Origin: an uncultured Mycoplasmatota bacterium
GTDB lineage: Bacteria > Bacillota_I > Bacilli_A > RF39 > UBA660
NCBI GenBank assembly: GCA_947646095.1
Contig: CANSFI010000002.1
Coordinates: 5,132-69,131, forward strand
DNA: 64,000 bases
Direction of reading: 5' to 3'
Positions 6,206 through 23,692 of this stretch are shown piece by piece. Positions within the stretch are counted from its first letter, which is position 1. Every line of letters starts with the position of its first letter. Under the pieces are notes generated by a model that was not told the DNA's origin, did no database searches, and was given only the letters and a program-made list of their open reading frames with translations. The position numbers and the translations under genes were made by a program.

Positions 6206-6469
6206 TTATTTTATATTTAATATTTTTTCTAGTTCTTCTTTCTTTTTTCCTCTTAAAGGTTTACATTTCAAATAATTATTTTTATCTTTATTTATAGCAT
6301 CTTTCATTCCTTTACAACTACCAAATCCACATACTCCGCAATTTAATCCTGGTAAATGTTTTAGTATTTCATCTTCATTATCTATAGATACTAATATTAT
6401 TCCTAAGATTAAAGAAGTTATTGTTATAATTATTATTCCTATCATTTTATGTTTCCTTTCTTTATACAA
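6206..6469 (-). CDS. short RnfB-like protein: TM anchor plus putative Fe-S cluster domain only (no ferredoxin domains)
   Basis: LPGLNCGVCGFGSCKGMKDAINKDKNNYLKCKP matches the RnfB N-terminal Fe-S domain. It is located at the 3' end of the rnf gene string. Confidence 0.5.
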   Translation of the reverse strand: MYKERKHKMIGIIIITITSLILGIILVSIDNEDEILKHLPGLNCGVCGFGSCKGMKDAINKDKNNYLKCKPLRGKKKEELEKILNIK

Positions 6470-8348
6470 GAACTATACGGAAAGATTTGGTGTTGTTACC
6501 ATTAAAATTTTGAAAAGTAAATATGCCATTGCGATTGTTTTTATCAGCTACTCCATCTCCACCTCGACTAAACCAAGGTGTGTTATTATTAACCATTCCA
6601 GCATAATCATCATACCATGAGCCAAGTACTCCACTATCAGCATAAAATGGTCCCATCTCACCTGTTGCATCACCTAATATTCTCTTACTATATTGAGTAT
6701 AAACTGTAGATATATATATATCTACATACTTATTTTCTGGAAAAGTTGAATCTGTAAATCCACTATTACCATATTTTGTGGTAGCCCCAGTTGTATATCC
6801 CATAATGGCTTCTTCAGCTCCACCACTCATATCAAATATTCCACTTATATTTCCTGTTGTACTTTGGTTATAAATTCCATTTGTTTTACTTCCATAAACA
6901 TTTTTACATGTTCCACTTTTAGTTTCTCCAGATGAATTTCCTCCACATCCTGTCATATACCCTTGATAATTATTTATATAAACTTCTGAATTTTTTCCAT
7001 ATTTACTATGAGATAAATAGGCTACTGCCCCCCATTCTGTATTTTTCATCATATGAATATCACTATTACTTGATAAACCAAATATACTATCAGTACTATT
7101 CATACTTTTTACCATTTTAAAAGCGTTACTTACATTTATTCCTCTCCATGAATAAACGTTTGGTTTTACTATTAATTTAGTACTATTTGGATTTGCTACT
7201 ACGGCTTCTGATGTTTTAGTAGCATCTTTATAACCTGATTCAAATTTTCCTACCCATATTCCATTTAGTTCATCATTTCCAAAAGTGAATGCTGGGTGTG
7301 TTAAATATTCTCCATTATTTGTTCCATTTGATTTAGGGGTATTTTTATTTTCAAATACTATATCGATACTATGAACTTTAGTTGTATCTTTACTTGTATT
7401 TTTATCTAATACTTCTACATACCATAATTTATATTTATATCTTGGTATCCATGTTAAATAAACTAAAATATCATCTTCATTTATTTCTAATGCTGCATCT
7501 GTATTTTCATACTTGCTTCTACTTTCATCTGTTACTAGTACTGCATTTGCCCATACTTTATTATTATAATCATACCACTTACTTGATAAATCAGCTTTTT
7601 TTACAGTACCATCATTTTCTATTGTTACTGGTATCATTCCCGTTTTTAATACTGGATCTACTCCATTTAAACTTTCATCTTTATAGATATTTGTTTCTAC
7701 TGCTACTGTAATTGTTTTTTTTATGTTAGTTTTATCTACTGTTACTGTAATAGTTGTTATTCCCTCACTAATCCCTGTTATATTTCCTTCACTATCTACT
7801 TTAGCTATAAAGTTATCACTGGATTCCCAGTTTAATTTTTTATTGGTTGCATCACTAGGTAAGATATTTACATCTATTTTTTTACTTCCTTTTACTTTTA
7901 AAGTTATCTCTGTTTCACTTAATATAATATCCTCTACCGATATTGGTATAATACAATTTTTAGTATTTTCTATTAATGTTATATCATTATCATTAATTCC
8001 TTTAGTTACACAATATTTTCCATTTGTTATAGCTAATTCTATTTTTCCTTCTTTTGTAATAATCATATTACCACTTTTAGGTCTACTTCCTTTTATATCT
8101 AGTCCTTTAGCATCTGGAAATGTAAATGTTATTTCTGTCATTTCAACTGAGTCTAATAATTTATTAGCATAATAAACCTCCCCAGCTTTTATTATTCCAT
8201 ATGCTGAATCCTTAAATGCTGATTTATTTGCTCTTTCTATTATGTTCATTATTATTGGTATTGTAATTAAAGCTATTATGACTAATATTATTATGACTGC
8301 TAGAAGTTCTATAAGCGTAAATCCTTTTTTATTTTTCATTTCAATCAT
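6462..8348 (-). CDS. type IV pilin-like protein (prepilin N-terminus) fused to Big_2/Ig-like domains (pilin family member P1)
   Basis: N-terminus MIEMKNKKGFTLIELLAVIIIL... has the canonical G|FTLIE prepilin cleavage/methylation motif. The middle region has a Big_2-like repeat (ITLKVKGSKKIDVNILPSDATNKKLNWESSD...ITVTV). Confidence 0.75.
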   Translation of the reverse strand: MIEMKNKKGFTLIELLAVIIILVIIALITIPIIMNIIERANKSAFKDSAYGIIKAGEVYYANKLLDSVEMTEITFTFPDAKGLDIKGSRPKSGNMIITKEGKIELAITNGKYCVTKGINDNDITLIENTKNCIIPISVEDIILSETEITLKVKGSKKIDVNILPSDATNKKLNWESSDNFIAKVDSEGNITGISEGITTITVTVDKTNIKKTITVAVETNIYKDESLNGVDPVLKTGMIPVTIENDGTVKKADLSSKWYDYNNKVWANAVLVTDESRSKYENTDAALEINEDDILVYLTWIPRYKYKLWYVEVLDKNTSKDTTKVHSIDIVFENKNTPKSNGTNNGEYLTHPAFTFGNDELNGIWVGKFESGYKDATKTSEAVVANPNSTKLIVKPNVYSWRGINVSNAFKMVKSMNSTDSIFGLSSNSDIHMMKNTEWGAVAYLSHSKYGKNSEVYINNYQGYMTGCGGNSSGETKSGTCKNVYGSKTNGIYNQSTTGNISGIFDMSGGAEEAIMGYTTGATTKYGNSGFTDSTFPENKYVDIYISTVYTQYSKRILGDATGEMGPFYADSGVLGSWYDDYAGMVNNNTPWFSRGGDGVADKNNRNGIFTFQNFNGNNTKSFRIVLV

Positions 8349-8522: not shown

Positions 8523-9088
8523 AAAGGCATGTACCTTTTAAATAAAAGTGACATAACAAAAGCAGTTATTAAAGCAATAGGAACTCCTTTAAAGTATTTT
8601 GGAATATTAGATATTTCTAACCTTTCTCTAATACTTGCGAATATATATAAAACTAATGTAAAACCTAAAGAAGAAGATATACTATATATAAGAATTTCAA
8701 TAAAATTAAAACTATTATTTATATTCAATAAATTTATACCTAATACTGCACAATTTGTAGTTATAAGAGGTAAATATAAACCTAAATTTTTATGAATTTT
8801 AGGTAAATATTTTTTTAATACAATTTCTATTAATTGAACCATAAAAGCAATAATCAAAATAAACATAATAGTTTTTAAATATGTAGTATTTGTAGGAACT
8901 AAGATAAAATAATAAATTAAATAAATTAAAATACTAGATAAAATAACTACTATACTAACACTTACTCCCATATAAAAGGCATTCTTTTCTTTATTAGAGC
9001 TACCAAAGAAAGGACATAATCCTAAAAATTTACTCAAAATAATATTTTCTGTAAGTAAACCTGTAATAAATAAATTAATTAAATTCAT
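8519..9088 (-). CDS. rnfA: Rnf electron transport complex subunit A
   Basis: Polytopic membrane protein with GLCPFFG motif, RnfA/NqrE family. Confidence 0.85.
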   Translation of the reverse strand: MNLINLFITGLLTENIILSKFLGLCPFFGSSNKEKNAFYMGVSVSIVVILSSILIYLIYYFILVPTNTTYLKTIMFILIIAFMVQLIEIVLKKYLPKIHKNLGLYLPLITTNCAVLGINLLNINNSFNFIEILIYSISSSLGFTLVLYIFASIRERLEISNIPKYFKGVPIALITAFVMSLLFKRYMPL

Positions 9089-9714
9089 ACTCTTCTCCTA
9101 TCTTTTAAATAATTAAAAAGTGGTATTAATAATCCTAAAGTTAAGAAAGCTCCTGCTGGTTCTACTAAAATAGATATTGGTAAAATATTAGTAGTTGGTA
9201 TTATTCTATAAATAGCTCTATATCTAGTAATAGAACTAATAGAATCCATTAGTGTAATTATACCAGTACCAAGAACTTCTCTAAACAAAGCTATTAAAGT
9301 TATAGCTAAAGTAAATCCTAGTCCTATTCCTAATACATCTTTCAAACTATAACTCATTTTTTCTTTTGAATAAACTGTTAATATTCTGCCTAAAATAGTA
9401 CAGTTAACAACAATTAAAGGTAAATATATTCCAAATACTTTATATAGGTTAGATATATAATTTTTTAATATTATTTCTATAGCTGTAACAATAGTTCCAA
9501 CTATTAATATATAAACAGGTATTTTAACACTTTCTGGTACTATTTTCTTAATAATAGTTACAACAAATGATGAAAGAATTAAAACTATTAAAACACATAT
9601 TCCCATTAAATAAGCGTTTTCTACTTTAGTTGTAACTGCTAAAGCAGGACATAATCCTAAAAGTAAAACAAAAGTAGGATTTTCTTTTATTATTCCATTT
9701 ATTATTGTTTTCAT
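9085..9714 (-). CDS. rnfE: Rnf complex subunit E
   Basis: LLLGLCPALAVTT motif, RnfE/NqrD family. It overlaps rnfA by 4 nt. Confidence 0.85.
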   Translation of the reverse strand: MKTIINGIIKENPTFVLLLGLCPALAVTTKVENAYLMGICVLIVLILSSFVVTIIKKIVPESVKIPVYILIVGTIVTAIEIILKNYISNLYKVFGIYLPLIVVNCTILGRILTVYSKEKMSYSLKDVLGIGLGFTLAITLIALFREVLGTGIITLMDSISSITRYRAIYRIIPTTNILPISILVEPAGAFLTLGLLIPLFNYLKDRRRV

Positions 9715-9798
9715 ATTTCACCTACACTTTTCATAATAAAATAAAGTATACTAGAACAGATTAAAGCTGTTAAAGTTAAAACTATTACACCTTTTATT

Positions 9799-11196
9799 TT
9801 ATCTTTCATAATTATCACCATAATCTTTTAAAGTATTTATAAACATCTTCTTTAAAGATGTAGAAGTTATTGTAACACCACTAATAGTATCAACATTATC
9901 AAGATTATTTTGTTCAGATATTAATTTATTTATATAATTTGTATCTATTATCTTTTCATAAAAACTATCACTTTGTTCTAATATTTCTACAGATTTTATT
10001 TTAGAATTATTAATAGTTATTTTTGCTTTTATGGTACTAGAATATCCTTTTTCAGTTACAATATAAATAATATTAGAACCTATTTTTTCTTTACTTTCAA
10101 TACTATAATTAGGATCTTTTTCATCAATTTTATATTTAGAAGTAATTATAAAAGGTAAAACTACAATTAAACTTGCTAAAACTATAAATGGTAGAATTAT
10201 TTTTTTTTGTCTATTTGAGCATAAATTATCAATAACAGGCACTAGCATATTCATAGTTAAAATACTTGTAAGAACACCTTCTGGGTATGGAGTTAAATAT
10301 CTAAATATAACTGTAAGTATTCCAAGTGAAATACCATATATTATTTGACCAGCTATAGTAGTTGGACTAGTAACAGGATCAGTTGCCATAAAAACTGCTC
10401 CAAAAAATAACCCACCACTTAATATTTGAAATAAAGGATACCAAATTCCTAAATCATTAAATATTCCAACTAAATAAGTTAATATAAATACTGTACTTAT
10501 ATAAAAAACTGGTATTTTCCATTTAATTGTTTTAGTAATTGTTAAATAAATAAAAGCTATTAAACAAAGTAAAGCACTTGTTTCTCCGATAGCCCCTGGT
10601 ATAGTTCCAATAAAGAAATTTAAAAGGTTTCCATATGGTTTAACTAATATATCATATGTACCTATACTATCTATAGATGCATTAGAAAGTGGTGTAGAAT
10701 GACTTATAGTATCTATTTCATAACTATTCAAATATCCTCCATGACTACTAATTACGCTAGCATATACTGATATAATGAAAAGTCTTCCTATCAAAGCAGG
10801 ATTAAAAATATTATTACCAAATCCACCAAATAACATTTTACCTAATATACTAGCAACTAAAGAACCTAGTATAACTAAAGATACTGGTGTATTAATTGGT
10901 AAGATAAGTCCTAAAAACAAACCTGGAATAAAACTATAAGAATCAAATAAGTATTTTTTTAAATCCTTTTCTTTTAAGAATAATTTTACATATAATAATT
11001 CAAAAAGTGTTGTTGATAAGGTTGATACTAATATTATTATAATTGGTCTAAATAGAATAATTATATTTCTATTACTAATATAGGGTATAATGCCATTTTT
11101 ATAAAAACTAAATAGAATAATTGGAGTTAAAGCAATAATTAAATGTAACATTATTTTGCTAGTTTTATTTTTACTTTTTATATATGGTCCTTTCAT
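9799..11196 (-). CDS. rnfDG: fused Rnf subunits D and G (RnfD membrane domain plus C-terminal FMN-binding RnfG domain)
   Basis: The N-terminal ~320 aa are polytopic RnfD-like. The C-terminal ~140 aa have a TM anchor and the FMN-binding motif DTISGVTITSTS. Confidence 0.75.
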   Translation of the reverse strand: MKGPYIKSKNKTSKIMLHLIIALTPIILFSFYKNGIIPYISNRNIIILFRPIIIILVSTLSTTLFELLYVKLFLKEKDLKKYLFDSYSFIPGLFLGLILPINTPVSLVILGSLVASILGKMLFGGFGNNIFNPALIGRLFIISVYASVISSHGGYLNSYEIDTISHSTPLSNASIDSIGTYDILVKPYGNLLNFFIGTIPGAIGETSALLCLIAFIYLTITKTIKWKIPVFYISTVFILTYLVGIFNDLGIWYPLFQILSGGLFFGAVFMATDPVTSPTTIAGQIIYGISLGILTVIFRYLTPYPEGVLTSILTMNMLVPVIDNLCSNRQKKIILPFIVLASLIVVLPFIITSKYKIDEKDPNYSIESKEKIGSNIIYIVTEKGYSSTIKAKITINNSKIKSVEILEQSDSFYEKIIDTNYINKLISEQNNLDNVDTISGVTITSTSLKKMFINTLKDYGDNYER

Positions 11197-12495: not shown

Positions 12496-12524
12496 TAGAC
12501 AAAACTAAAAATTTATGTTATAAT
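12496..12524 (+). promoter_or_regulatory. near-consensus sigma-A promoter with extended -10
   Basis: TAGACA, 17 nt spacer, TGtTATAAT. RBS AAGGAGTGAG lies before the ATG at 12593. Confidence 0.55.
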
Positions 12525-12592
12525 ATTAATATATACTTAAAAAGAATAGGATTATTAATTTAGTTAATAATAGTATAAGGAGTGAGTCGTAC

Positions 12593-15466
12593 ATGAAGAA
12601 GATTAAAACAATTAAAAGGATTTCAAAATATTTATTATTTATAATAGTGATGTTTATAAGTATAAATGGAGTTAAAGCTGATTATCAAAGCGACCATAAT
12701 AGTACAATTTCCACATCTGGTGGAGTAAACTGTAATAGCTATTGTTGGAATTTCCCAGATAAGCAATCATATGTTTCTGGAATTAGAGTAAGTGTTGTTA
12801 ATTCTGATGGAGATATGGTAAGTAAACGAACAATGGATTATTTAAATAGTGGTAACCATGTTTATAGGTTTAATAACAATAGAGGATACTCAAGATGTTA
12901 TGACAATGCTCGTAACAAAATAACTTATTTAAAATATAATGCACCAGCTAAATGGGGAAATCATAATGGTGAAGAAATAGCAAAATATCTAGATATGCCA
13001 GATATCTTTCGTAATAGAAATTCGGCACAAATTATAAAAGATGCTATAAATAATGGGTTAGATAAAGTATTCTTTGATGACATTGGATATACACTACCTA
13101 ACAGTGTAGAAGAAAGAAATGAACATTATATAATTATTGAACCTGTAACTGCTATTATTTCTGGTGATAGACAATATTATGGAACATATTATGAACTAGC
13201 TTCATCTCTACCTACTGGTAGTGGGATTTCTACATCTTCTGTATTGTTAGAATCATTACCAATTTCTATGTATATATCTGGAAATAAAAGAATAAAAGGA
13301 AGTGCTAGATTTGAAAATGGTACTTATTTTAAAGGATTATTAAGAGAAGCTAGATGGCCAGAGATGCGAAATCCTTATTACACAAGTCAATTAGGTAAAC
13401 AATATTGTGATCAACATTTTGGTTGGGGGGTAGCTATTTATTGGTTAGGTGTTGGTAGTGATGATGATCCTCCAGATTTAGATATAACCCCTCCTATTCC
13501 ACCTAAATGTGATTTTAATAATTCTAGTCACTTTAGAAGTACAACAAGTGGCCCAAATAATGAAGATTGCTGTATATATGTTTTAGATAATTTAAAAGAT
13601 TATAATATAACTAAAGAAGATTTATTTAATCGACATAGAAGGTGTCGTCAAAACATCATTAACACTTGTAAATTTGGATATGATACAAGTCAACCTTCAT
13701 GTAATACAAGTGCTTACGGTTATATAAAAGATATTGACGATTGGGTATGTATTAAATCTAGTCCATTATCAAATAACTCAACTTTTAAAAATTATTTTCT
13801 AAAATACGGGAATTTTGATAGTGCTTGTTCTGTATACTGTCGTGATGAAATCAAATATTTATATCCAGGTAGTGGAATGATTGCTTTAGCTGGTAACTAC
13901 TTTACAATTGCTAATAAAAGTAATTCATATAGTTATTATATAGATGATGTAACAAAAACAACTAAAGTTAAAGCCGCAACTCTTGGACCTATAACTATTA
14001 CTGTCAAAAGAGAATGCACTATTGATACAGATCCAGATACTGTTACTAGTTCTGATTTAAATCAATGTCAAGTTAAATTAAATGATCAATTAGATCAATT
14101 AAAAGCTCCTGCTATTGAATTTGCTTATGAATCTGATTACTATAATAATCCTACTGAAAATTTAAGAGTTTCTAAAACTACTACAACTAATTCAAATGAT
14201 AATAATATAAAATCTAGAACTATAAAATATGAATATTCATTACCTACTACTACTTATTACTCTGTATCTAAAGGTAATGGAGCATCTACCAAATATAAAC
14301 CTTCTTCAAATAATTCAAATTATATTACTATTGGATATCATTTACCTATTCATTTTACTCAGGCTACTGGTAGAACAGAATATCAAATAGGTATTAAAAA
14401 TTTCAATAATCAAAACTTTAATAATGTATTTATAAATGGTAATAAAATGCCAACTACTATTAAATCAAGTATTGAAAGTTATATTCAAAACTTAAGAAAA
14501 AGTGGGAAGGCTAATGCTAGTAATATTAATGGAAGATGGTATTTAGATAAAACTTTTGTAAAATTATTAGAAAAAGCTAATTATGATAAAGTAAATTTTA
14601 TGCAGATGAGTTGTGCTAATACTAGTAGTTATACTTGTAATTATGATGATAATGGTATATATTGTTTAGATAAAAATAGTAATTCTAATAGTGAACAAAC
14701 TTATAAAAATCTAGATAGTTGTATTAGAACAGAAGTTCAAAAATTAAAAACTAACAATGTAAGTTATAAATCTGATTTAACTTATACTTGTAACTTTACT
14801 GTAAGAAACACTATAGGTTCTACACCTGATCCAGATCCATCAGGATATAAATGTAAATATATAAATGGAAAATATTATGGAATTAATGGAAATATTGTAT
14901 CAAAAGATACATATACTAGTGAGTGTGGTTCTTCACCTATAAATCCTGATAATCCATCTTGTATTCCAGGTGATCCAGATTGTCCAGGTAATAATGATGA
15001 AGATGATAATTGTGTTGGTCCTAGTTGTAATCCTGGTGGTATAGATCCAGAAGATGGTCCAGGAGGAATCAATGTTATATTTAGACCAATATCATTAGAT
15101 AATCCATTTCCAAGTATCGATGGTGATGGAAGAAAAACGGGAAGTAATTGGTGTTATTGGTATGACTGTGCTAATACAAACGATGTAGTTAAAAAAGCTA
15201 TTACTAATAATAGAAATGTTACAACTGAAAAAGTTTATAAAGATTTAGGCCCACTTTATAAAATAACTTTAACTCCTGCTACTATTAAAGAAATAAGAGC
15301 TTATAATAAAAAAACTACCTATGATGACTTTAATTTAAAATGCAATAATGGTACTAAATGTCTTAGTGACTTTATTCGTAAAAACTTTATAAGTAAATTT
15401 ACTGGCTGTGGTATTAAAGGTCATGAAGGTACTACTAAATGTCAAGACTTTGATAGATGGGGATAA
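12593..15466 (+). CDS. large secreted Cys-rich protein of unknown family (paralog A, 957 aa)
   Basis: Sec-type signal peptide (MKKIKTIKRISKYLLFIIVMFISINGVKA|D). Many Cys residues. C-terminal D/P/G-rich segment (NPFPSIDGDGRKTG). No recognisable catalytic motifs. Confidence 0.6.
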   Translation: MKKIKTIKRISKYLLFIIVMFISINGVKADYQSDHNSTISTSGGVNCNSYCWNFPDKQSYVSGIRVSVVNSDGDMVSKRTMDYLNSGNHVYRFNNNRGYSRCYDNARNKITYLKYNAPAKWGNHNGEEIAKYLDMPDIFRNRNSAQIIKDAINNGLDKVFFDDIGYTLPNSVEERNEHYIIIEPVTAIISGDRQYYGTYYELASSLPTGSGISTSSVLLESLPISMYISGNKRIKGSARFENGTYFKGLLREARWPEMRNPYYTSQLGKQYCDQHFGWGVAIYWLGVGSDDDPPDLDITPPIPPKCDFNNSSHFRSTTSGPNNEDCCIYVLDNLKDYNITKEDLFNRHRRCRQNIINTCKFGYDTSQPSCNTSAYGYIKDIDDWVCIKSSPLSNNSTFKNYFLKYGNFDSACSVYCRDEIKYLYPGSGMIALAGNYFTIANKSNSYSYYIDDVTKTTKVKAATLGPITITVKRECTIDTDPDTVTSSDLNQCQVKLNDQLDQLKAPAIEFAYESDYYNNPTENLRVSKTTTTNSNDNNIKSRTIKYEYSLPTTTYYSVSKGNGASTKYKPSSNNSNYITIGYHLPIHFTQATGRTEYQIGIKNFNNQNFNNVFINGNKMPTTIKSSIESYIQNLRKSGKANASNINGRWYLDKTFVKLLEKANYDKVNFMQMSCANTSSYTCNYDDNGIYCLDKNSNSNSEQTYKNLDSCIRTEVQKLKTNNVSYKSDLTYTCNFTVRNTIGSTPDPDPSGYKCKYINGKYYGINGNIVSKDTYTSECGSSPINPDNPSCIPGDPDCPGNNDEDDNCVGPSCNPGGIDPEDGPGGINVIFRPISLDNPFPSIDGDGRKTGSNWCYWYDCANTNDVVKKAITNNRNVTTEKVYKDLGPLYKITLTPATIKEIRAYNKKTTYDDFNLKCNNGTKCLSDFIRKNFISKFTGCGIKGHEGTTKCQDFDRWG

Positions 15467-15471
15467 TATAA

Positions 15472-15508
15472 AAGAATTTGAATCTATGAATTTTCAAATT
15501 CTTTTTTA
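15472..15508. terminator. bidirectional intrinsic terminator
   Basis: AAGAATTTGAA-tctatgaatt-TTCAAATTCTT has a perfect 11-bp stem flanked by T/A runs on both strands. Confidence 0.6.
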
Positions 15509-15516
15509 ATTAAAAT

Positions 15517-15804
15517 TTATCTATTAAATAAGTCAATATGACTACCTATTGCAAAAAGCAATAAAATTAATTCACTATCTTGTATTTTATATATTAATAA
15601 CCAATCAGGTAATATATGACACTCATTACAATCTTTAAATGTTTTATCATTTACTAATTTATGATTTCTATACTTTAAATCTAATTCTTCTCCATTTGAT
15701 AATTTTTCTATAACTTCATACAATTTATTTAAATCTTTACCTTGTCTTTTTATTTTTTTATACTGTTTTTTAAAATTACTAGTATAATCAACTTGATACT
15801 ACAT
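15517..15804 (-). pseudogene. YafQ/RelE-family toxin gene with amber stop at codon 2
   Basis: In-frame translation from ATG 15804 is M-TAG-YQVDYTSNFKKQYKKIKRQGKDLNKLYEVIEKL...CHILPDWLLIYKIQDSELILLLFAIGSHIDLF, YafQ-like throughout. Only a TTG at 15723 could restart. Confidence 0.55.
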
Positions 15805-15809
15805 AATAA

Positions 15810-16100
15810 TTATTCCTTATTTAAAGAATCTATAAGATCATTCATGTTAGTATAGCCTTTTCTTTTTCCACTTTTTAACTCTTGAAGAATTTGCTCACCT
15901 TCATCTAATGATTCTATCAATTCTTTAATTGGTCTAGGGTTAGACACTTCAAATGGTATACCATCTTTATTTATCAATTGTTTCATTGCCATATTTACAA
16001 AAGTACTCATGTTTAATCCTAAATTTTTTAATATACCATTGGCTACTTCTTTATCATGGGTATCTACTTGAACACTAATAGCACTTGTTAAATTTTCCAT
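15810..16100 (-). CDS. RelB/DinJ-family antitoxin
   Basis: ISVQVDTHDKEVANGILKNLGLNMSTFVNMAMKQLINKDGIPFE matches DinJ/RelB. It sits immediately upstream of the YafQ-like ORF. Confidence 0.7.
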   Translation of the reverse strand: MENLTSAISVQVDTHDKEVANGILKNLGLNMSTFVNMAMKQLINKDGIPFEVSNPRPIKELIESLDEGEQILQELKSGKRKGYTNMNDLIDSLNKE

Positions 16101-16321
16101 ACATATACACCTCTTTCTTATAAAAAATTATATCATAAAAATATTATATATATTTATAATATTATAATCTATAAATTTAATAATAAATGAAAATAAACAA
16201 ATATCTAAAAACAATTAATATAAAATACTTCATCAAAAACTATAATATTTCTTTATATTTATTCTATATAATTATAAATTTTACTTTCTCATACTTAAAA
16301 CAAAAATTTTTAAAATAATTA

Positions 16322-16350
16322 TTGACCAATTGGATTACAAATTATATAAT
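16322..16350 (+). promoter_or_regulatory. consensus sigma-A promoter
   Basis: TTGACC, 17 nt spacer, TATAAT, upstream of the ATG at 16374. Confidence 0.55.
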
Positions 16351-16373
16351 TATAATAGGAATTAGGTGATATT

Positions 16374-17105
16374 ATGATAAAAAATAAAAGAAAAACTATT
16401 ATAGGGATTATTTTAAGTACTATAGTTATTAGTACAATACTATTTTCTAATCAAATAGCTAAAGTTGACGCTGAAGGACAAGCAGACATAGGTGGTTCTA
16501 CTGCTGGTGGTAGCGGTTGTATAGACCCTAAAAATTGTTGGCCATTCCCAGATGGTGGTACTAATAAGTCAATTAGAGGTATTAGGGTTAGTGTTGTAGA
16601 TAACAATGGAAACATGATCAGTGCTAGATCTATGGATTATTTGAGTGAGGAAAGTCATGTTAGAATAATTAACACAGATAAACGTTATACTAAATGTACA
16701 AACCACACTCGTAATAAAGTATCTTATATAAAACAAAATACATCTTGTAATTGGGCTAATGAGTTAATAACTGTTAAACATGCTTCTTGGCTACCAGACG
16801 TATTTTTCGATAGTTCAGCTAGTAATACAATTAAAAATTATATTTTAAATAACTATAATAATATAAGAGACAATATATTCCAAGATATTGGTTATAATGC
16901 TCCTAGTAAAGAAAAAAGAAAAAATCATTATGTAATTGTTGAACCTGTAACTTATGTTACTTACCTAGGGGACAGATATTATGGAACTTATCATGAATTA
17001 AGTAATAAAATGCCTACTAGTGGAAGACCTGTTTTAAAAAAACATTTACCTTATTCTATGTATATTGTAGGAAATGAAAATATTGGTGGTGATGGTGGTT
17101 TTTAA
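16374..17105 (+). CDS. N-terminal fragment of large secreted Cys-rich protein paralog B (ends at in-frame TAA)
   Basis: Signal peptide plus a domain homologous to residues ~40-270 of paralog A (GIRVSVV.NG.M.S.R.MDYL, HY.I.EPVT). Confidence 0.55.
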   Translation: MIKNKRKTIIGIILSTIVISTILFSNQIAKVDAEGQADIGGSTAGGSGCIDPKNCWPFPDGGTNKSIRGIRVSVVDNNGNMISARSMDYLSEESHVRIINTDKRYTKCTNHTRNKVSYIKQNTSCNWANELITVKHASWLPDVFFDSSASNTIKNYILNNYNNIRDNIFQDIGYNAPSKEKRKNHYVIVEPVTYVTYLGDRYYGTYHELSNKMPTSGRPVLKKHLPYSMYIVGNENIGGDGGF

Positions 17106-17144
17106 AATAATTCTTATTTTGATGGAGCTATAAAAGTAGTTAAC

Positions 17145-19136
17145 ATGAAGAATATGACAAACTCATCAGGTGTTACTAATAGTTATGAGGACAAAAGTTA
17201 TGGTTGGGGTTTAGGTATCTATTGGTTGTACGACTTCGATAATCTAAAAGACCCATTTTGTAGTTTAGATACACCTGACCACTTTACTACTTCAACAAGT
17301 GGACCTAATAAAGAAGATTGTTGCCAATATGTTATAGATCATCAAAGTGAATATAATATAACAAAAGCTGAATTATTTAGTAGATACCCTAGATGCCGTG
17401 CATTATTACTTGAAAAAGAATGTAATTTTAACTTAACTACCATTTATCCATCATGTAAAGAAAATGCATATGGAAAAATAAGTGATATTGATAATTGGGA
17501 TTGTATATATGCTAGTGCATATTCAACTGATTCTTCTATCAAAAACTATTTCTTAAAATATGGTTCTATTAATAGTAAATGTTCTGTATATTGCCGAGAT
17601 GAAATAGAATATATTTATCCAGGAAATGGAATGATTACTTTAGCTGGTAATTTCTTTACTATTGCTGGTAATACAAATTCTTATACAATTTATACTGATG
17701 ATGTAACAAAAACAACTAAAGTTAAAGCAGCTACACTCGGACCAGTTAAAACTACTATTAAAAGAGAATGTTCTATACTAGGTGAAAATGATAGTACTTG
17801 TAGTGCTAAATTAGATGAACAATTAAATAACTTAAAGGCACCAGAAATCGAATTTGCCTATGAATCAAAATATTATAATAACCCTGTGGAAAACTTAAGA
17901 GTTAGTAAAACTACCACTTCTACAAATAATAGTAATGGTATTAAATCTAAAACAATAACTTATGAGTATGCTCTACCTAAAAATACTTATCAATATATAT
18001 CTAAAGGTAATGGAGCTTCTTATAAGAAAACTTCAGCTATAGGTAATTATCCATATATTAAAATCGGACCTCACTTACCTATTCATTTTTCAGAAAAAAG
18101 TTCTAATGATTATCAATTAACTATTAAAAAATTTAATATTCCTAATTTTGATTCATTAATATTAAAAGGAAAAACAATGTCTACTACTTTTGTTTCAAGT
18201 ATTGAAAGTTATATTCAAACATTAATAAATAATGGTAGTGCTAATCCTAGACTTATTAATGGAAGATATTATTTAGATCAAACATTTGTAAAATTATTAA
18301 ATAAAAATAATTATACTGTTGATGAGTTCTTGTCAAGGAACTGTGCTAATACAAATACTTATTCTTGTGATAGTGATGGTAATGGTATATATTGCTTAGA
18401 TAAAAACAAAAATACAAACAGTGAACAAACTTATAAAAACTTTAATGCTTGTATTAAAAAAGAAGTTCAAAAAGATACTTCTGATAAAAAAAGCTATAAA
18501 AATGATATGTTATATTCTTGTGAATTCCAAGTAAAAAACACTATAACACCTTCAGAAAATGATCCATATAAATGTAAATATATAGATGGCAAATATTATG
18601 GAAAAAATGGAAATGTAGTATCAAAAAATACATATAATAAAGAATGTAACACACCTGACAAACCTAATAATCCTGATGATTGTGATCCTGAAGTAGAATG
18701 TTGCGATCCAGAATGTCCAAATCCAATTAATCCAAATGGTATTAATGTTATATTTAGACCAATTTCTTTAGATAATCCATTCCCAAGTATTGATGGAGAT
18801 GGTAGAAATACAGGAACTAATTGGTGTTATAATTTCGATTGTAATAATAAAAATGAAATTGTATCAAGAGTTATTACTAATAATCGTGATGTGGAAACTG
18901 AAAAAGTATACAAAGATTTAGATCCACTTTATACTATTACTTTAACACCTGCCACTATTAAAGAAATAAGAAAATATAATAAAAAGAATAATTATGATGA
19001 TTTTAATTTAAAATGTACTGATGGCTATAATTGTCTTAGTAACTTTATTAGAAATGATTTCAAAAAATACTTTAAAGGTTGTGGAATTAAAGGTTTAGAT
19101 AATGGTTTAAATTGTGTTAAATCTGATAAATGGTGA
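17145..19136 (+). CDS. C-terminal portion of paralog B (same frame as 16374..17105, separated by a single TAA)
   Basis: Collinear with paralog A residues ~280-957. Blocks are near-identical at DNA level (e.g. GATGATGTAACAAAAACAACTAAAGTTAAAGC, AATGTTATATTTAGACCAAT). Confidence 0.55.
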   Translation: MKNMTNSSGVTNSYEDKSYGWGLGIYWLYDFDNLKDPFCSLDTPDHFTTSTSGPNKEDCCQYVIDHQSEYNITKAELFSRYPRCRALLLEKECNFNLTTIYPSCKENAYGKISDIDNWDCIYASAYSTDSSIKNYFLKYGSINSKCSVYCRDEIEYIYPGNGMITLAGNFFTIAGNTNSYTIYTDDVTKTTKVKAATLGPVKTTIKRECSILGENDSTCSAKLDEQLNNLKAPEIEFAYESKYYNNPVENLRVSKTTTSTNNSNGIKSKTITYEYALPKNTYQYISKGNGASYKKTSAIGNYPYIKIGPHLPIHFSEKSSNDYQLTIKKFNIPNFDSLILKGKTMSTTFVSSIESYIQTLINNGSANPRLINGRYYLDQTFVKLLNKNNYTVDEFLSRNCANTNTYSCDSDGNGIYCLDKNKNTNSEQTYKNFNACIKKEVQKDTSDKKSYKNDMLYSCEFQVKNTITPSENDPYKCKYIDGKYYGKNGNVVSKNTYNKECNTPDKPNNPDDCDPEVECCDPECPNPINPNGINVIFRPISLDNPFPSIDGDGRNTGTNWCYNFDCNNKNEIVSRVITNNRDVETEKVYKDLDPLYTITLTPATIKEIRKYNKKNNYDDFNLKCTDGYNCLSNFIRNDFKKYFKGCGIKGLDNGLNCVKSDKW

Positions 19137-19337
19137 TTATTCACCTTTTTTTCTAAGAAGAAAATATATGGTAAAATTAAGTATAAGTAAGAATTCATTG
19201 AAATATTTAGAAAAGTTTAGTCTTAAATCAGGACCATATCTAAAGAAATACAAAATAAATTATCAAATCAAAAAATTAAAACCAATAATACTATTTATAA
19301 TTCCATGACAAAGAAAATATTAATAGTTTTTCAAAAT

Positions 19338-23095: not shown

Positions 23096-23692
23096 ATGAA
23101 TCCTTTAGCACACAATATCAAAAAATTATTAGTTCCTAAAGATGAATTAAATAAAAAACAAGTTGCTCTATTTTTGACTCCTACTAAAATAGAAGAACTT
23201 GATAAGGCTGTTAAAACATTATCAAATTATTCAAATGGTAAAGTAAATAGAAATATTTTAATTGAACTTGCGATAGATAATCTACTTGATAGTATTCCAG
23301 AAGCTATTGAAGAATATGAAAAAGAAAATAAAGAAGATGAAGTTCCATATGATTCTGTTATATGTCCCGCTAAAGATGGAGGGCAAGATTTCTTAATTCA
23401 TAATAAAAGATGGGAATTTGTTAAATTAGATGCTGAAAAAATCAAATATTTAAAGCATTTAGTATTATATGTTGGCATTCCATACTCTTCTATTATGTAC
23501 TATGCTGATATTAAAGAATTTAAACCAGTTATAATTGATAATCAAAAAAAATATCAAATATATGTTGAAAATATTAAGGAAATTAATCCTAGTATTCCTT
23601 TAGGAGATATAAGCGCTGTATATACAAGAAGTCCAAAATATACTAAGTTAAATAAAGTTTTATCAGCTAAATCTTATTCAGATATTCTTTAA
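23096..23692 (+). CDS. hypothetical protein
   Basis: ORF with RBS GAGGTGA. No family recognised. Confidence 0.5.
   Translation: MNPLAHNIKKLLVPKDELNKKQVALFLTPTKIEELDKAVKTLSNYSNGKVNRNILIELAIDNLLDSIPEAIEEYEKENKEDEVPYDSVICPAKDGGQDFLIHNKRWEFVKLDAEKIKYLKHLVLYVGIPYSSIMYYADIKEFKPVIIDNQKKYQIYVENIKEINPSIPLGDISAVYTRSPKYTKLNKVLSAKSYSDIL

Follow-up and report, generated by a model that had tools for sequence, protein, structure and literature searches.

Two paralogous genes for predicted Sec-exported, Cys-rich proteins of an unannotated family beside rnfC in an uncultured Bacillota bacterium

Genes A and B at the rnfC locus

In this study, we analyzed a 64-kb stretch of DNA (the window; contig CANSFI010000002.1 of assembly GCA_947646095.1, positions 5,132 to 69,131) and, within it, two paralogous genes for large, predicted exported Cys-rich proteins, which we designate A and B. 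The window has about 25% GC and encodes SpoIVA and a sporulation-type sigma factor; rnf genes and three T-box leaders are also present, but no rRNA. Its source is an uncultured spore-forming Bacillota. Gene A (12593..15466, + strand) encodes a protein of 957 aa with 32 Cys and is preceded, 8 nt upstream, by an AGGAG ribosome-binding site; a 98%-identical protein is encoded on five other contigs. Gene B (16374..19136, +) is its paralog, and the two products align collinearly from the signal peptide to the C-terminus, with 54% amino acid and 67% nucleotide identity. Both the coordinates of the open reading frames (ORFs) and the collinear paralogy put forward in the original prediction are thus correct. 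That prediction, however, took B for two ORFs (16374..17105 and 17145..19136), which are in fact parts of one gene of 920 codons, in the same frame and interrupted by a single in-frame TAA (17103..17105, +) that reads AAA (Lys) in the sister strain L009. Over the 2,763 nt of gene B, the window and L009 differ by one nucleotide, T versus A at 17103, and the L009 product is intact with 920 aa, so that copy B in this assembly has either acquired its nonsense codon very recently or been misassembled. Genetic code 4 (TGA = Trp) was considered as the cause of the split and rejected, as the stop is TAA and in frame. The proteins had also been described as giant and as containing more than 40 Cys; B, like A, has 32, and 957 aa is large rather than giant.

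Export of both proteins by the Sec pathway is predicted from their N-termini, in which an n-region rich in K/R precedes a hydrophobic h-region and a cleavage site of A-x-A-like type (..NGVKA before the cut and DY after it in A, ..AKVDA and EG in B). The signal peptide of A (12593..12679, +; aa 1-29, MKKIKTIKRISKYLLFIIVMFISINGVKA followed by DY) is the only hydrophobic segment of the protein, and the same holds for that of B; a signal-peptide-like N-terminus is present in 143 of the 151 full-length members of the family. As far as sequence features can tell, the Sec-type signal peptides and the secreted, Cys-rich character attributed earlier to both copies are therefore supported. In A, the signal peptide is followed by an N-terminal alpha/beta domain (12728..13486, +; aa 46-298; motifs GIRVxVV, HYxIIEP and YYGTxxEL), a Cys-rich helical segment with a beta-rich core (13508..14812, +; aa ~306-740), a Cys-flanked hairpin module of 25 aa, CKYINGKYYGINGNIVSKDTYTSEC (14852..14926, +; aa 754-778), a D/P/G/C-rich linker (14945..15076, +; aa 785-828) of variable length and sequence in homologs, and a C-terminal signature domain (15077..15463, +; aa 829-957). 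The latter is the most conserved part of the family (IFRPISLxNPFP..GR..G.NW..ITNNR..PLYxITLTP..IKEIRxYN..YDDFNLxC..G..C.S). A and B each have a single copy of the hairpin module (C..[DN]GxYYGxxGxxV....Y..EC), whereas family member P0011 has four in tandem (residues ~490-600); the module has no match in Pfam and loosely resembles cell-wall or choline-binding repeats.

An AlphaFold2 model of full-length A had a mean pLDDT of 80.4, with low confidence only in the signal peptide, a few loops and the linker (pLDDT <50 over residues 785-792 and 800-828). Foldseek comparison of this model with the PDB gave a best E of 0.015 and target-normalised TM values of at most ~0.3, which were disregarded; judged from the model, the fold of the N-terminal domain is not recognised in the PDB. 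Furthermore, A, B and nine distant homologs had no match among Pfam, NCBIfam, PHROGs, PADLOC or PDB sequences (E limits of 0.01-1, depending on the search). The family is hence as unrecognisable as had been claimed, at the sequence level and, for the N-terminal domain, also at the level of the fold. Many Cys positions are invariant among family members, and the proteins are probably disulfide-stabilised. The idea of a calcium-binding-like C-terminal segment, on the other hand, had to be abandoned: it rested on a lone DGDGR whose acidic residues are not conserved in the family (consensus PFPxxxGxGRxPGxNW), which leaves calcium binding unsupported, and residues 785-828 are the low-confidence linker. 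Repeated conserved acidic Gly-rich nonapeptides of the RTX/calcium-binding kind are absent from A and B, as is any Pfam match to them. Neither did we find LPXTG, SLH, CWB2 or choline-binding wall or S-layer anchors in A or B, which lack any Pfam domain and any C-terminal hydrophobic segment.

The A/B locus is flanked by rnfC/rnfD and the gene for RNase HII, with a RelB/YafQ module and a histidine kinase (HK)-response regulator (RR) pair, all as first reported. Its description as an island fails, however, as our synteny comparison showed the position beside rnfC to be common to six lineages and the two-component system to be kept. Proteins 40-50% identical to A are encoded divergently beside rnfC at loci L013, L015, L034 and L037, and the same slot is occupied in the sister strain L009. 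Where the contig reaches, the ortholog is followed by the HK, the RR, a metallo-beta-lactamase-fold gene and then RNase HII (L009, L013 and L015 for the two-component system). Outside the window and the sister strain, the relatives beside rnfC are single copies without toxin-antitoxin genes (L013 and L015, for instance, lack the RelB/YafQ module), which indicates that only the duplication and the RelB/YafQ insertion are lineage-specific.

Both genes are preceded by sigma-A-like promoter sites: TAGACA-17-TATAAT with a TG extension (TGtTATAAT) at 12496..12524 (+), 69 nt 5' of the ATG of gene A, and TTGACC-17-TATAAT at 16322..16350 (+) for gene B. With 11/12 matches each, these are the two best matches between 12000 and 19600, a region in which the total number of promoter-like sites is that expected by chance in AT-rich DNA (67 found versus 66 expected). 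At the same position, the orthologs have TTGACT-17-TATAAT (L013, 11/12) and TTGCTA-17-TATAAT (L015, 10/12), and it is this positional conservation that makes the promoters predicted for both copies credible. The last base of the -10 element of gene A, 12524, is T in the window (TATAAT) and A in L009 (TATAAA), one of two intergenic differences in ~18 kb, and may alter the strength of this promoter. The sole terminator-like site between 12000 and 19600, a hairpin followed by a T-run (19132..19155, +), overlaps the stop codon of gene B.

The identity between A and B follows the constraint on each domain, with values of 20-60% for the N-terminal domain (N-domain) and of 80-88% for the C-terminal domain (C-domain). 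To speak of near-identical blocks, as was done originally, overstates the case, since the longest exact nucleotide match is 32 nt. Two explanations had been offered for this pattern, gene conversion or diversifying selection. Recent gene conversion between A and B is unsupported, there being no long identical tracts and nothing remarkable about third-position identity, and was rejected. Fast, surface-like evolution, in contrast, is supported by the comparison across lineages: identity among the Cys-rich orthologs is 40-45%, against 74-89% for the HK, RR, RNase HII and sigma genes that flank them, so that the Cys-rich protein evolves far faster than its neighbours. At the strain level, the flanks in the window and in L009 differ at ~0.1% of positions, and gene A shows 14 nonsynonymous and no synonymous codon changes plus one codon indel. 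The lack of synonymous changes among the 14 has P = 0.044 (80% nonsynonymous sites assumed), and the clustering of 12 of them in residues 45-292 has P = 5e-6. In this one pair of strains, both metagenome assemblies, the changes may be read as a sign of diversifying selection on the N-domain. A diversity-generating retroelement as their source was rejected by inspection, as they extend over ~750 nt and are not adenine-specific. The finding is thus real but less exotic than first described, being neither giant, nor an island, nor calcium-binding, nor visibly gene-converting, and with one of the copies broken.

The family and its Tad-like gene clusters

The original prediction gave no family size. 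Whereas a word-indexed search returned 12 relatives only, an exhaustive HMMER profile search of 1.84 billion representatives yielded 1,318 clusters (50% identity) at E <= 1e-3, 350 of them at E <= 1e-30. Homology searches seeded with the large family alignments A4 and A5 brought hardly any additional members among the matches listed. Most of these clusters are 800-1,300 aa long, and the element common to most is the C-domain, of 130 aa, whose family-wide motifs include ITNNRG and YxDFNLxC; among the 150 best matches, the best-scoring stretch mostly lies at profile positions ~715-904. Of the 182 family proteins collected, 164 have the C-domain, which never lies more than 26 residues from the C-terminus, and 56 match the N-domain profile. 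Over 19 diverse N-domains, R65, G73, E183, P184, G197, T198 and E201 are invariant. A and B possess every invariant residue of the family alignments A2 and A5, along with the signal peptide, the C-domain and the Cys complement that characterize the family. The extreme C-terminus (..C..D.W) is kept in the close subfamily only, not across the superfamily. The family is confined to uncultured low-GC gut and rumen bacteria, mostly metagenome-assembled genomes (MAGs) labelled Bacilli or Bacillota. Literature searches on Tad systems in these taxa and on DUF5411 yielded nothing about the family of A and B.

Distant loci were retrieved from GTDB genomes and JGI metagenomes by the C-domain motif alone, and they revealed a setting that had gone unmentioned in the original prediction: the usual home of the family is a Tad-like secretion-ATPase cluster. 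In the usual order, this cluster encodes a polytopic membrane protein of 539 aa, a secreted Cys-containing protein of 224 aa with a C-terminal anchor, the family protein in one or two copies, sometimes DUF5411, a CpaB/RcpC-like protein, a T2SSE-family ATPase, two polytopic membrane proteins, and an 81-aa pilin-like together with two pseudopilin-like proteins, followed further on by a TrbL_4 / mycoplasma integrative and conjugative element (ICE)-like membrane protein. In 23 of the ~25 informative loci outside the clade of the window, the genes for the CpaB-like protein and the ATPase lie ~0.5-2 kb 3' of the end of the family C-domain. The nearest NCBIfam resemblances of the ATPase are VirB11 and TadA-type, all of them far under the curated cutoffs. 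The cluster-encoded proteins are full-length homologs of A: the L003 member matches at its N-terminus with E = 1e-35 and at its C-terminus with E = 6e-27, and P0011 spans profile positions 1-904. Gene spacing is 7-26 nt in the L014 cluster, and in L003 gaps of 244 and 434 nt lie between the family gene and the genes on either side. The exceptions to this setting are the rnfC-linked clade, to which the window belongs, and the copies at L005 and L017, which lie among uridine kinase, GAPDH and polA.

Several further observations were made in these clusters. DUF5411 (PF17424; 132-138 aa) is encoded directly 3' of the family gene in L014 (6627-7025) and L035 (3754-4170) and is a candidate partner. 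In L003 (17009-19970), and also in L001, L004, L016, L021 and L027, the Tad-like genes are followed by genes for two small membrane proteins with a shared C-terminal motif. The 665-aa protein encoded after them in L003 matches TrbL_4 and the mycoplasma ICE families MMCAP2_0566 and Mbov_0396, and Tad-like and conjugation-like parts may be combined in a hybrid cluster. L001 and L002 are labelled Ignavibacteriales and Muribaculaceae, respectively; with 28-29% GC, a cluster as in 'Bacilli bacterium' MAGs and ATPases that are 86-88% identical, they are probably mis-binned.

A possible surface role and its alternatives

Our preferred reading of these data, which we hold tentatively and at somewhat less than even odds, is that A and B are Sec-exported multi-domain cell-surface proteins of a family belonging to a Tad-like machine, with docking through the C-domain and a role as adhesin or in ligand binding. 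Among the roles considered, one at the surface or in adhesion is the most likely for A and B, ahead of that of an enzyme or toxin. We infer the surface retention, the docking and the binding role from the architecture, the synteny and the rates of evolution described above. The invariant 130-aa C-domain would be a handle shared by the family, by which the protein is held or docked at the Tad-like machine, at its filament or at the envelope; the Ig-like middle region would form a stalk, and the fast-evolving N-domain of ~250 aa would be the head in contact with the ligand. In the lineage of the window, the gene would have left the Tad-like cluster for a fixed site beside rnfC and then been duplicated; strong housekeeping-type promoters would drive A and B, with copy B switched off by the nonsense codon in this assembly.

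Among known proteins, the nearest functional analogy is PilC/PilY1 or MshQ, large Sec-exported tip-docking proteins. PilC/PilY1 and MshQ-type proteins are of ~1,000-1,200 aa and have ordinary Sec signal peptides, and PilC/PilY1 combines a conserved C-terminal domain with a variable, adhesive N-terminal domain. Neisseria has two dispersed paralogs, pilC1 and pilC2, and frequently only one of them is on; A and B are likewise two copies, one of them with a stop codon. The genes for PilC/PilY1 and MshQ-type proteins are located within or close to type IV filament clusters, and the proteins attach to the filament by their C-terminus, the last ~10 residues of PilC/PilY1 being bound to a PilK-like minor pilin via beta-strand addition (PMC13533445). 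Unlike in PilC/PilY1, the extreme C-terminus of the A/B family is not conserved, and the machine predicted from the gene clusters of its relatives is Tad/VirB11-like and not a type IVa pilus. The PilC/PilY1 gene lies among minor pilin genes, which is not so for A and B in the window; in the distant relatives, the family gene is ~4.4 kb 5' of the pilin-like and pseudopilin-like ORFs of the same cluster. Membership of A and B in PilC/PilY1 is excluded, given that there is no propeller, no similarity in sequence or fold and no conserved extreme C-terminus.

Within Tad systems, TadG/CpaL are large accessory proteins needed at the filament tip (PMC13533445, PMC11870444), and they carry an N-terminal pilin-like domain (PMC13533445). 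A and B differ from them in having, in place of a class III signal, a predicted cleavable Sec signal peptide with an A-x-A-like site and no N_methyl, TadE or pilin match. Similarity to Ig-like adhesins and matrix proteins (RbmA, intimin, the MG domains of bacterial alpha-2-macroglobulin) is generic to beta-sandwiches; the N- and C-terminal domains of A and B are without counterpart in those proteins, and A and B have no known anchor motif.

Several points weigh against the docked surface protein that we favor. First, no Tad-like genes were detected by tblastn in the 64-kb window, and the link to the machine is an extrapolation from relatives whose identity is only 25-30% along most of the protein. 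Second, the dispersed L005 and L017 copies among housekeeping genes suggest that the protein may work independently of the cluster. Third, the lack of conservation of the extreme C-terminus across the superfamily argues against a docking by the terminal strand as in PilY1. In addition, A and B have no recognisable wall or membrane anchor and no transmembrane segment, and they might just be released; R65, E183 and E201, being invariant, may belong to a catalytic site. Besides, the N-domain hot-spot was seen in a single strain pair, and other pairs of variants in the family show other patterns.

In a first alternative, A and B would be free-standing surface antigens or adhesins without a functional tie to the Tad-like cluster, the adjacency in the relatives being inherited gene order. 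The whole close subfamily, in six lineages, is located beside rnfC with no Tad genes nearby, the L005 and L017 copies lie between uridine kinase, GAPDH and polA, and the gaps around the L003 gene are such that it could have its own promoter there. However, the linkage persists although the ATPases are 67-90% identical and the family proteins 22-60% identical to the L003 member (aligned segments), the genes are tightly packed in L014, and the upstream membrane proteins and DUF5411 co-vary with the family gene. We regard this alternative as rather doubtful, with a real chance of being right nonetheless.

A second alternative, which we consider unlikely, is a secreted soluble enzyme whose N-domain, of unrecognised fold, would hydrolyse polysaccharide, peptidoglycan or host glycan, with the Ig-like and C-terminal parts as carbohydrate-binding or accessory modules. 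By analogy with VirB1-type lysins, it could be an envelope-remodelling enzyme of the Tad-like clusters. The invariance of R65, E183, P184, G197, T198 and E201 over 19 diverse N-domains would be expected under this hypothesis, which is also compatible with a signal peptide in the absence of an anchor and with strong constitutive-type promoters before both genes. In contrast, there is no match among Pfam, NCBIfam or PDB sequences, and conservation within the protein is lowest in the N-domain, where the amino acid changes between strains also gather, which is unusual for a catalytic domain. Moreover, the N-domain profile matches only 56 of the 182 family proteins.

A Cys-rich structural protein of the spore coat or exosporium is disfavoured and, in our view, highly improbable. 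The organism encodes SpoIVA and a sporulation-type sigma factor, and Cys-rich proteins are typical of clostridial exosporia, CdeC being an example; in their high Cys content and their occurrence in a spore-forming Bacillota, A and B do resemble CdeC and the CotY/Z class. Coat proteins, however, are made in the mother cell without a signal peptide, whereas A and B carry a predicted cleavable Sec signal peptide. Furthermore, their promoters look sigma-A-like and not sigma-E/K-like, with near-consensus sites kept in the orthologs, no sequence match exists, and most relatives are found in Tad-like clusters of MAGs. Finally, a phage or mobile-element cargo (receptor-binding protein, polymorphic toxin or defence component), to which the RelB/YafQ remnant between A and B and a weak Foldseek resemblance to phage tail/baseplate proteins (E 0.015-0.1, target-normalised TM at most ~0.3) might point, is essentially refuted by the absence of tblastn matches in 50,697 phage records and 72,556 plasmids and of matches in IMG/VR, PHROGs or PADLOC, by a chromosomal position kept in six lineages and, for a polymorphic toxin, by an inverted architecture (variable end N-terminal, conserved end C-terminal) followed downstream by a toxin-antitoxin remnant and a two-component system.

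Returning to the docked surface protein, a bolder extension of it is tempting, even if the odds are clearly against it: an envelope machine that has not been described so far, and that is found only in uncultured low-GC gut Bacilli, might have proteins of the A/B type as its exported head or cargo. Such a machine would be made up of the CpaB-like protein, the TadA/VirB11-like ATPase, divergent platform proteins, pilin-like subunits and mycoplasma-ICE-like membrane proteins. The C-domain would then be a new docking or secretion signal, and the dispersed paralogs would be interchangeable, antigenically variable and switchable heads in the manner of Neisseria pilC1/pilC2. What gives weight to the question is that a family of at least 1,300 clusters, with neither annotation nor solved relative and with an N-domain of unrecognised fold, is nevertheless consistently tied to a type IV filament-like cluster. 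If this link is functional, the family would represent a surface-exposed, fast-evolving part of a machine for colonisation or contact in a poorly understood branch of the gut microbiota, and would provide type IV filament biology with a new docking domain. If it is not, the family is still a well-delimited target for structural genomics, all of whose carriers are uncultured.

Other features of the neighbourhood

Between A and B, on the - strand, lie an intact relB antitoxin gene (15810..16100; Pfam RelB, E = 6.5e-9) and the remnant of a yafQ-type toxin gene (15517..15812). The latter has a TAA at codon 2 (M*YQVDYTSNFKKQYKK..., where the asterisk is the stop), and a 68-aa ORF within it matches positions 27-88 of the YafQ_toxin profile. 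The toxin-antitoxin module is therefore an antitoxin-only remnant; the yafQ/relB region is identical in L009.

Directly 3' of the rnf operon and 4 kb from gene A, the window encodes on the - strand (6462-8348) a 628-aa protein that combines a Big_2 Ig-like domain with a prepilin-type N-terminal methylation motif and is possibly a large adhesin of pilin-like type. The corresponding neighbourhood of L013 encodes two N_methyl proteins, of 370 and 331 aa. At the same locus, the rnf operon is reduced to a fragment of 309 aa with RnfC_N only (8946-9875), no other rnf genes having been called upstream, and the Cys-rich gene is still divergent beside this fragment. Further along the window, a 198-aa ORF (23096-23692, +) shows 20 nucleotide differences from L009 within 224 nt (23176-23399), with 97% amino acid identity and flanks that differ at ~0.1%; this second hot-spot looks like an imported recombination tract.

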